A stretch of DNA of 18,304 nt from a virus. Taxonomy: Duplodnaviria > Heunggongvirae > Uroviricota > Caudoviricetes. Under the pieces are notes generated by a model that saw only the letters and a list, made by a program, of their open reading frames with translations, was not told the origin of the DNA and searched no databases. The position numbers and the translations under genes were made by a program. Below are positions 1,430 to 3,019 of the stretch, piece after piece. The number at the start of each line of letters is the position of its first letter. Within the stretch, counting starts at the first letter, position 1. The stretch lies in IMG/VR virus record IMGVR_UViG_2529292908_000003, one strand, 5' to 3'.

Positions 1430-3019
1430 ATGCGCAAACAGCCTGATGCCCTTCGCTACGACCGCCAAACTATTTTTGGCCTTGTCCGTGAGCGTCCGAT
1501 CGACATTCACAAAGATCCCGTAGCACTGAACAAATATATCTGCGAATACCTGACGACAAAGGGCGTGTTTGAGAATGAAGAAACAGACCTGGGCACTGTT
1601 GATGTTCTCCAGTCATCAGAAACACAAACTGATGCAGTGGAAACTGAGGTATCTGATATCCCAAAAAATGAAACCGCGCCGGAAGCTGAACCATCTGTAG
1701 AGCGTGAGGGGCCGTTCTATTTCCTCTTCGCAGATAAGGACGGAGAAAAATACGGTCGCGCAAACAAACTCTCTGGTCTGGATAAGGCACTGGCTGCTGG
1801 CGCCACTGAAATCACAAAAGAAGAATATTTTGCCCGAAAAAATGGCACATACACGGGCTTACCGCAAAATGTAGATACCGCTGAAGATTCAGAACAACCA
1901 GAGCCGATAAAAGTTACCGCTGACGAAGTAAACAAAATTATGCAGGCAGCCAATATCAGCCAGCCTGACGCCGATAAGTTGCTTGCTGCATCACGTGGTG
2001 AATTTGTTGAAGGGATTAGTGACCCGAATGATCCGAAATGGGTTAAGGGGCTCCAGACCCGCGATTCTGTGAACCAGAACCAGCATGAATCGGAACGGAA
2101 CTACCAAAAAGCGGAACAAAACAGTCCAAATGCGTTACAAAACGAGCCAGAAACGAAACAGCCTGAACCAGTAGCGCAACAGGAAGTGGAAAAAGTCTGC
2201 ACCGCCTGCGGTCAGACCGGCGGCGGCAACTGCCCTGATTGTGGCGCGGTGATGGGCGACGCAACATACCAAGAAACATTCGATGAAGAGTATCAGGTTG
2301 AAGTTCAGGAAGATGATCCGGAGGAAATGGAAGGCGCTGAACATCCACACAAGGAGAACACTGGCGGCAATCAGCATCACAATAGCGATAATGAAACTGG
2401 CGAGACGGCAGATCACCCAATTAAGGTGAACGGTCATCACGAAATCACATCCACCAGCAGGACGTGTGACCATCTAATGATCGACCTTGAAACCATGGGA
2501 AAAAATCCTGATGCCCCGATCATCTCAATAGGTGCAATATTTTTCGATCCGCAAACCGGAGATATGGGACCGGAATTTAGTAAGACTATCGATCTGGAAA
2601 CTGCTGGCGGAGTCATTGATCGGGACACCATTAAATGGTGGCTTAAGCAATCACGCGAAGCGCAATCTGCCATTATGACCGATGAAATCCCGTTAGATGA
2701 TGCACTGTTACAATTGCGAGAATTTATCGACGAAAACTCCGGTGAATTTTTTGTTCAGGTTTGGGGAAATGGAGCCAACTTCGACAACACGATTTTGCGC
2801 CGTTCATACGAACGGCAGGGGATCCCCTGCCCGTGGCGTTACTACAACGATCGCGATGTACGCACAATCGTTGAGCTGGGGAAAGCCATAGACTTCGATG
2901 CCAGAACGGCTATTCCATTCGAAGGTGAGCGCCATAATGCACTTGATGACGCCCGTTACCAGGCAAAATACGTTTCAGTTATCTGGCAAAAACTGATCCC
3001 GAGTCAGGCTGATTCTTAA
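1430..3019 (+). CDS. Prophage exonuclease with C-terminal DEDDh (DnaQ-like) 3'-5' exonuclease domain, acidic linker and CxxC-x7-CxxC zinc ribbon; 5' end probably truncated by the IS insertion
   Basis: Exo motifs: DLET (motif I), NGANFDNT (motif II), HNALDDARY (motif III, H-x4-D). The track ORF start at 1388 lies inside the IS terminus, so the first usable ATG is 1430. Sits upstream of xis-int as in lambdoid recombination modules. Confidence 0.65.
   Translation: [529 protein letters not shown]

Follow-up and report, generated by a model that had tools for sequence, protein, structure and literature searches.

An IS600-interrupted Qin-type prophage gene that retains a predicted DEDDh exonuclease domain behind a RecE-like middle region

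We analysed a stretch of 18,304 nucleotides (IMG/VR virus record IMGVR_UViG_2529292908_000003; hereafter the window), and in particular the fragment of an exonuclease gene that lies near its left end, directly behind the terminus of an insertion sequence (IS). The window originates from an Escherichia coli chromosome: over positions 1-3400 it is 99.9% identical to dozens of complete E. coli genomes, and the annotation of the matching DNA in strains ML35 and RM10410 reads, from left to right, IS600 (broken by IS30), an incomplete pseudogene, excisionase, integrase, rspB, rspA, ynfA, ynfB and speG. In K-12 the locus corresponds to the end of the Qin cryptic prophage that faces rspB. The features of the interrupted gene and of the IS elements next to it are given below, with fragment residues numbered from nucleotide (nt) 1412 and the confidence of AlphaFold models given as the predicted local distance difference test (pLDDT).

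1-262, minus strand: left end of an IS629/IS1203-like element of the IS3 family, inserted in IS30 (terminal repeat and start of orfA, read from the sequence)
263-1086, minus strand: IS30 fragment, inserted in IS600 (annotated 'IS30-like element IS30 family transposase'; its terminal repeat ends at 1086)
1087-1413, minus strand: left-end segment of IS600 (IS3 family); orfA starts at 1349 and reads leftward; named IS600 by RefSeq
1414-1416, plus strand: GCG, one copy of the 3-bp IS600 target-site duplication (junction comparison)
1415-3019, plus strand: exonuclease pseudogene fragment, codons 289-823 of the 823-amino acid (aa) frame (197-731 of the 731-aa variant) and the stop codon
1415-1585, plus strand: small helical module, residues 2-58 (AlphaFold pLDDT >90)
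1694-1861, plus strand: small β-hairpin/helix module, residues 95-150 (AlphaFold pLDDT ~95)
1979-2050, plus strand: 24-residue motif, residues 190-213, the best-conserved piece of the whole protein family
2198-2242, plus strand: predicted C4 zinc ribbon CTAC-x7-CPDC (CxxC-x7-CxxC), residues 263-277 (read from the sequence; pLDDT 75-78)
2267-2446, plus strand: acidic linker predicted to be disordered, residues 286-345 (27-32% D+E, almost no K/R)
2471-2986, plus strand: DEDDh 3'-5' exonuclease domain (Pfam PF16473)
2483-2491, plus strand: Exo I, D358-x-E360 (D358 at 2483-2485, E360 at 2489-2491; by alignment)
2783-2785, plus strand: Exo II, D458 (by alignment)
2933-2950, plus strand: Exo III, H508-x4-D513 (H508 at 2933-2935, D513 at 2948-2950; by alignment)

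The open reading frame (ORF) that contains the fragment runs on the plus strand from 1388 to 3019 and is open throughout, with the IS600 terminus supplying its first nine codons. The original prediction had the gene begin at 1430, which is indeed the first ATG of this ORF, but the frame opens at 1388 and homology to the intact exonuclease gene sets in at 1414/1415. Over 1415-3019 the fragment is 100% identical at the nucleotide level both to strain ML35 and to codons 289-823 of the gene in the live phage PhiR42_1, and it retains the last 535 codons of a gene of Qin-type lambdoid prophages. Its nature as an N-terminally truncated pseudogene was already known, as the identical DNA already appears in RefSeq/PGAP as a pseudogene of a '3'-5' exoribonuclease domain-containing protein' that is incomplete and lacks its N-terminus. 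The intact parent is a gene of the early left operon of a lambdoid (Qin-type) prophage, and the fragment adjoins xis-int at the rspB-side end of such a prophage, which confirms its earlier assignment as a prophage gene.

We compared the junctions of the IS with the uninterrupted target to establish how the gene was cut. The IS600 end, ...GGCTACCTCA, terminates at 1413 and the exonuclease sequence picks up at GCGTATCTCGG; the uninterrupted target in PhiR42_1 is GACTGGAAGCGTATCTCGG, and the opposite end of IS600, as found in ML35, reads ...GACTGGAAGCG/TGAGGTGTACTGGC, where the slash marks the junction. The left junction is thus ...GGAAGCG/TGAGGTG (ML35) and the right junction ...CCTCA/GCGTATC (window), so that one copy of GCG stands at 1414-1416 and the second copy lies beyond the IS, outside the window (ML35, L001 4664-4666). 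The element has the marks of a simple IS600 insertion, with the TG...CA termini typical of the IS3 family and a 3-bp direct duplication, the left junction of which is read outside the window, and the insertion point falls between codons K288 and R289. Because of this duplication and these termini, the truncation is put down to simple transposition of IS600, which duplicated 3 bp of the target, and not to a deletion. Deletion of the N-terminus was rejected on a further count, in that the far side of the IS in ML35 and RM10410 still holds exonuclease residues 143-290.

Full-length homologs are either 823 aa (PhiR42_1 and Tritos; P0099) or 731 aa (P0002) long, and 288 or 196 residues, respectively, are missing from the window fragment. 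The original prediction had stated that an IS terminus abuts the reading frame and that the native N-terminus is probably lost; both statements hold, and the scenario that would have spoken against them, of homologs that start near residue 15 of the ORF, is excluded by these full-length proteins. The 731-aa variants (P0002/P0005) are without ~92 residues, in frame, of the N-terminal domain (~165-256 of P0099), a gap that partly overlaps a low-confidence helix/loop at 206-236 in the AlphaFold model.

Three IS elements are nested at this site, the IS629/IS1203-like end lying in IS30, IS30 in IS600 and IS600 in the exonuclease gene. The IS30 transposase ORF (260-1024) has its C-terminal end cut by the IS629-like element, inside which window position 1 falls; RefSeq describes the matching DNA as 'IS3 family transposase', and the name IS629/IS1203-like for 1-262 is one that we presume from the terminal repeat and OrfA, not one returned by a tool. 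The IS629-like/IS30 junction was found as a single piece in none of 5426 complete E. coli genomes. In the order of events, IS600 jumped into the gene between codons 288 and 289, parting the last 535 codons both from the first 288 and from the upstream phage promoter, and IS30, then the IS629-like element, landed later in IS600.

The missing half of the gene can be recognized in K-12, where ydfE (b1577) matches the PhiR42_1 protein over residues 1-256 with 100% identity and occupies the same locus (L006 6079-6999 and L004 4137-6608, respectively). It is the same gene in K-12 and in the phages PhiR42_1, Tritos and HannyBb (PHROG 2082, 'exonuclease'), standing between dicB-ydfD and xis-int-rspB. 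In these phages the gene is intact, unlike in the window, whereas K-12 keeps an N-terminal stump cut by IS2 and what is left in the window is the last 535 codons, severed by IS600. Given that ydfE corresponds to residues 1-256 of PhiR42_1, ydfE and the window fragment are complementary ends of one gene that were inactivated independently, and both halves can now be named, K-12 ydfE as the N-terminal stump and the window ORF as the C-terminal part. The insertion site is uninterrupted in 3564 of the 5426 complete genomes, with up to six copies per genome, and the IS600-disrupted junction is present in 37. In prophages of the PPompW type from O26-type enterohaemorrhagic E. coli (L014 2637-5104, PPompW_EH1846, and related Shiga toxin (Stx) 2a/PPompW records), the same gene is annotated as frameshifted by a deletion; with these copies, the exonuclease gene has been inactivated repeatedly and independently across lineages. 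The literature mentioning ydfE yielded nothing functional. The locus itself matters little, as another gene lost to an IS in a Qin-type prophage that is decaying.

The original prediction had placed a DEDDh 3'-5' exonuclease in the C-terminal part of the protein, and a hidden Markov model search bears this out, with a match to PF16473 (Rv2179c-like 3'-5' exonuclease) of 227.2 bits against a cut-off of 27 (E 1.4e-67) that spans profile positions 2-177 of 177. Residues D358, E360, D458, H508 and D513 make up the complete DEDDh set when aligned with T4 DexA and the 190-aa exonuclease of mEp460 (gp26), and the columns of the D, E, D and last D are invariant among the three proteins. T4 DexA (PDB 8KEL/8KEN) was the sole solved relative found by sequence search (E 8.5e-7); it belongs to the same DEDDh fold family and conserves the five catalytic residues at 27% identity, and the lambdoid gp26 conserves the catalytic residues at 60% identity. 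Judged from its sequence, the C-terminal domain belongs to the T4 DexA/Rv2179c DEDDh family. T4 DexA, its E. coli homolog EcD and mEp460 gp26 differ from the gene studied here in that they are stand-alone proteins of 190-227 aa, whereas the domain described here forms the C-terminal module of a protein of 823 aa.

Upstream of the nuclease domain the fragment resembles RecE (exonuclease VIII) of the Rac prophage. In a BLASTP comparison residues 279-625 of a full-length homolog align with residues 294-591 of K-12 RecE at 37% identity (E 5e-57), and the fragment itself matches the RecE middle region with E 1.8e-61. The shared region, RecE ~294-591, is 37-41% identical overall and 82-90% identical across the motif and the ribbon, and both proteins are large, acidic and composed of several modules, encoded at the end of the early left operon near xis-int. 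Outside this region the two proteins part. RecE has a PF06630 N-terminus and a PF12684 PD-(D/E)XK 5'-3' nuclease, and recT is the next gene downstream, whereas the ydfE-type protein combines an N-terminus of the YdfE type with a DEDDh 3'-5' nuclease and has no annealase neighbor. PF12684 was absent from the fragment and from the full-length proteins P0002 and P0099 in the same searches that found it in K-12 RecE, PF06630 was absent from both full-length homologs, and no recT or other annealase gene follows, since the window and five phages with the intact gene run straight on to xis-int. With no PD-(D/E)XK nuclease, no RecE N-terminal domain and no annealase gene following, the protein has a RecE-like scaffold but is not RecE. 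The likeness of the central segment to RecE, which the original prediction offered tentatively, is correct. Its fuller proposal, of a RecE scaffold that carries a different nuclease fold, holds for the middle region and for the DEDDh domain but not for the lost N-terminal domain, which in the window allele was of the YdfE type and not RecE PF06630, the sharing being confined to RecE ~294-591.

The finer anatomy of the middle region agrees with two more points of that prediction, a CxxC-x7-CxxC ribbon (residues 263-277, nt 2198-2242) and an acidic, low-complexity region upstream of the nuclease. RecE also has this C4 ribbon, as do several representatives of clusters formed at 50% identity. Acidic residues make up 26% (D+E) of residues 61-110 and 27-32% of residues 276-345, with an isoelectric point of ~4, and the AlphaFold pLDDT falls below 50 at residues 62-87, 213-257 and 286-345. 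Over fragment residues 1-345 the model has a mean pLDDT of 65.6, with two modules above 90; the helical module (residues 2-58) is weakly similar to RecE 314-351 (34% identity), and the β-hairpin/helix module is missing from K-12 RecE, with a gap at its place in the alignment. The lost N-terminus, modeled on residues 1-345 of P0099, reaches a pLDDT of 82.8. Foldseek searches of the PDB (with the middle region and the lost N-terminal domain) and of BFVD (with the middle region only) returned nothing below E 0.001.

The intact protein is a beads-on-a-string mosaic, in which a folded YdfE-type N-terminal domain is followed by the middle shared with RecE, consisting of two small folded modules, the 24-residue motif and the C4 ribbon, with disordered acidic linkers between them, and then by the C-terminal DEDDh domain. 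The sequence points most likely to a two-metal-ion 3'-to-5' exonuclease, with DNA 3' ends as the probable substrate. The RecE-like middle may bring the nuclease to the same partner or substrate as RecE, and the protein would work without a phage annealase, and so would not be part of a two-component recombinase of the RecET type. We consider it unlikely that the intact protein is instead an exoribonuclease that acts on RNA, for example on transcripts of the host or the phage, on small RNAs or on nucleotide signals. Such a role would fit the best-matching Pfam family, which takes its name from the Mycobacterium tuberculosis 3'-5' exoribonuclease Rv2179c, the PGAP product name, which contains '3'-5' exoribonuclease', and the operon, which also carries the small RNA (sRNA) DicF and host-targeting genes. 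However, we favor DNA because of the relationship to DexA, the sole solved relative, which is a 3'-5' DNA exonuclease (PMC12153337), and because the shared scaffold otherwise carries a DNA nuclease, that of RecE. In addition, Zheng et al. (2025) place DnaQ-like 3'-5' nucleases, along with a nuclease-less 'RecE-2', in the recombination modules of lambdoid phages (PMC12315714). A literature search for Rv2179c together with phage found nothing relevant.

With regard to the fragment left in the window, a scan of 1000-3400 with the sigma-70 consensus found a single promoter-like site, that of IS600 itself on the minus strand, and none on the plus strand upstream of the fragment. Neither possible start codon is well placed for translation, as ATG 1430 has no Shine-Dalgarno sequence ahead of it in the sequence and GTG 1388 directly abuts the AGGAAGGA purine run with zero spacer. 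With neither a promoter nor a ribosome-binding site recognizable, and with the transposase genes of the IS elements pointing the other way, the fragment is most probably silent; the neighboring xis is frameshifted as well. Its perfect identity to the phage gene fits a recent insertion, and we see no sign of maintenance by selection. We are highly confident in the reading in which the window holds a dead, IS600-cut fragment of a gene whose intact product would be a mosaic with 3'-5' exonuclease activity that does not belong to a RecET-type system.

Several points weigh against this reading. The 535-codon frame is perfectly open and has zero nucleotide differences from the gene of a live phage, so that sequence alone cannot prove the fragment non-functional, and the promoter scan covered the sigma-70 consensus only. 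Stand-alone 190-aa DEDDh proteins occur in phages and stand-alone DEDDh proteins are reported to work alone (PMC12153337), from which it follows that catalysis does not obviously require the N-terminal parts. The Foldseek searches with the non-nuclease parts were uninformative, and we infer both the choice of DNA over RNA as substrate and the role of the middle region.

These points lend some substance to the alternative that the shortened ORF remains expressed, with GTG 1388 or ATG 1430 as its start and driven by read-through or by an outward promoter borne by the IS, and yields an active short exonuclease, for example an anti-phage protein like EcD. The catalytic residues are all present in the open frame, the stand-alone 190-aa proteins come from lambdoid phages, and EcD ('HREX'), a stand-alone DexA homolog of E. 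coli, is reported to degrade DNA containing 5-hydroxymethylcytosine (5hmC) and to protect against T4 (PMC12153337). Nevertheless, we judge this alternative improbable. In addition to the missing plus-strand promoter, the poorly placed starts and the opposite direction of IS transcription, a recent insertion explains the perfect identity equally well, and the allele occurs in only 37 of the 5426 genomes. Furthermore, DexA residues W152 and D169, proposed to read 5hmC, align with Y478 and A492 (a three-sequence alignment in a divergent region), and 5hmC specificity should therefore not be carried over to the fragment. PADLOC 2.0 gave no match for the full-length protein and a weak, generic Cas-associated DEDDh match for a stand-alone phage homolog.

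That the gene is a true RecE ortholog, a 5'-3' exonuclease of double-stranded DNA for recombination of the RecET type, is refuted by the domain tests and has next to no probability. In its favor, several phage GenBank records carry the name 'exodeoxyribonuclease VIII' for the full-length gene, homology to RecE extends over the middle 300 residues and the NCBIfam RecE equivalog NF007259 is matched in part. That match, however, scores 258.7 bits where 1269 are required and is confined to profile positions 317-600 of 877, both RecE Pfam domains are missing from the fragment and the full-length homologs, the nuclease is of the DEDDh type with the opposite polarity and no recT lies downstream. The label in the phage records names the wrong nuclease type and the wrong polarity.

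Returning to the mosaic with a DEDDh nuclease, we mapped module combinations on long members of the family, checking them with Pfam. The family is narrow, as the middle region matched only 128 clusters when 1.84 billion cluster representatives were searched exhaustively with HMMER. By their predicted domains, its members combine N-terminus, shared middle and nuclease (DEDDh, PD-(D/E)XK or none) in every way: a RecE N-terminus with the middle and DEDDh in P0122 (99% identical in the RecE N-terminus and 98% in DEDDh), a YdfE N-terminus with the middle and PD-(D/E)XK in P0157 and P0214, a RecE N-terminus with the middle and no nuclease in P0126 and in gp06 of Shigella phage 75/02 Stx, and the motif with PD-(D/E)XK only in P0234. 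The last phage protein, gp06, is an example of the nuclease-less 'RecE-2' of Stx and lambdoid phages. It shares the middle region, including the motif (93%) and the ribbon, with the window gene, and differs in having a RecE-like N-terminus and no detectable nuclease domain and in being followed by gam, a recT-like gene and exo. The middle cassette is found with three cargoes, a PD-(D/E)XK 5'-3' nuclease (RecE), a DEDDh 3'-5' nuclease (ydfE-type) and none (Stx 'RecE-2').

The motif has the consensus LAAxRGE[FY]VEGISDP[NT]DPKW, and is nearly invariant in proteins that are elsewhere only ~30% identical and that carry the three different C-terminal cargoes. Compared with Stx phage gp06 it is 93% identical in amino acids and 78% in nucleotides, with the same codon used at only 39% of the identical residues. 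Such high protein identity with so little codon sharing indicates selection at the protein level rather than recent DNA exchange; exchange as the sole explanation was rejected in view of the many synonymous differences. Its near-invariance across the three cargoes makes the motif a candidate short docking motif. We would go further only tentatively, to the possible but rather doubtful view that the RecE-like middle, above all the motif and the C4 ribbon, is an autonomous, exchangeable targeting cassette that docks the fused cargo to a partner, either one of the host or one at DNA ends. Were this so, it would offer a handle on the function of the large N-terminal region of RecE in direct cloning; a 2023 review describes this region as being of unknown function and full-length RecE as improving linear-linear recombination (PMC11611040). 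As a shuffled module that appears to be under protein-level selection, the RecE middle could guide work on full-length RecE versus the nuclease domain alone. The modular RecE-like scaffold is thus mildly interesting, for the gene family rather than for the locus in the window.

The remaining features are the neighbors of the fragment and a second prophage-like region at the right end of the window.

3092-3342, plus strand: excisionase gene (xis) of the prophage remnant, frameshifted by a 1-bp deletion at ~3165
3377-4657, plus strand: tyrosine integrase of the prophage remnant (ORF list and annotation)
4845-5888, minus strand: rspB, chromosomal, downstream of the integrase (ORF list and annotation)
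15423-15743: shorter BRO-N-like ORF, second prophage-like region
15831-16622: BRO/Ant-type antirepressor gene, first of two, second prophage-like region
15867-15952, plus strand: match to Rfam sRNA-Xcc1 (RF02221), 73 bits, above the gathering score
16746-16835, plus strand: match to Rfam sRNA-Xcc1 (RF02221), 68 bits, above the gathering score
16877-17509: BRO/Ant-type antirepressor gene, second of two, second prophage-like region
17557-17778: TraR/DksA-type zinc-finger ORF, second prophage-like region

The deletion in xis lies in an A-run, relative to ML35, and frameshifts the 83-aa excisionase, leaving a 71-aa ORF from 3127; it could be either a real pseudogenization or a homopolymer sequencing error. 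At the other end of the window, directly after the ynfF stop codon (14928), the second prophage-like region (14929-18304) takes the place of the expected ynfG-ynfH-dmsD. It is 100% identical to the strains FORC_043 and FORC_029, neither of which is collinear with the window on its left side. Both sRNA-Xcc1 matches in this region lie by antirepressor-like genes, each at the start of one or a short way upstream.

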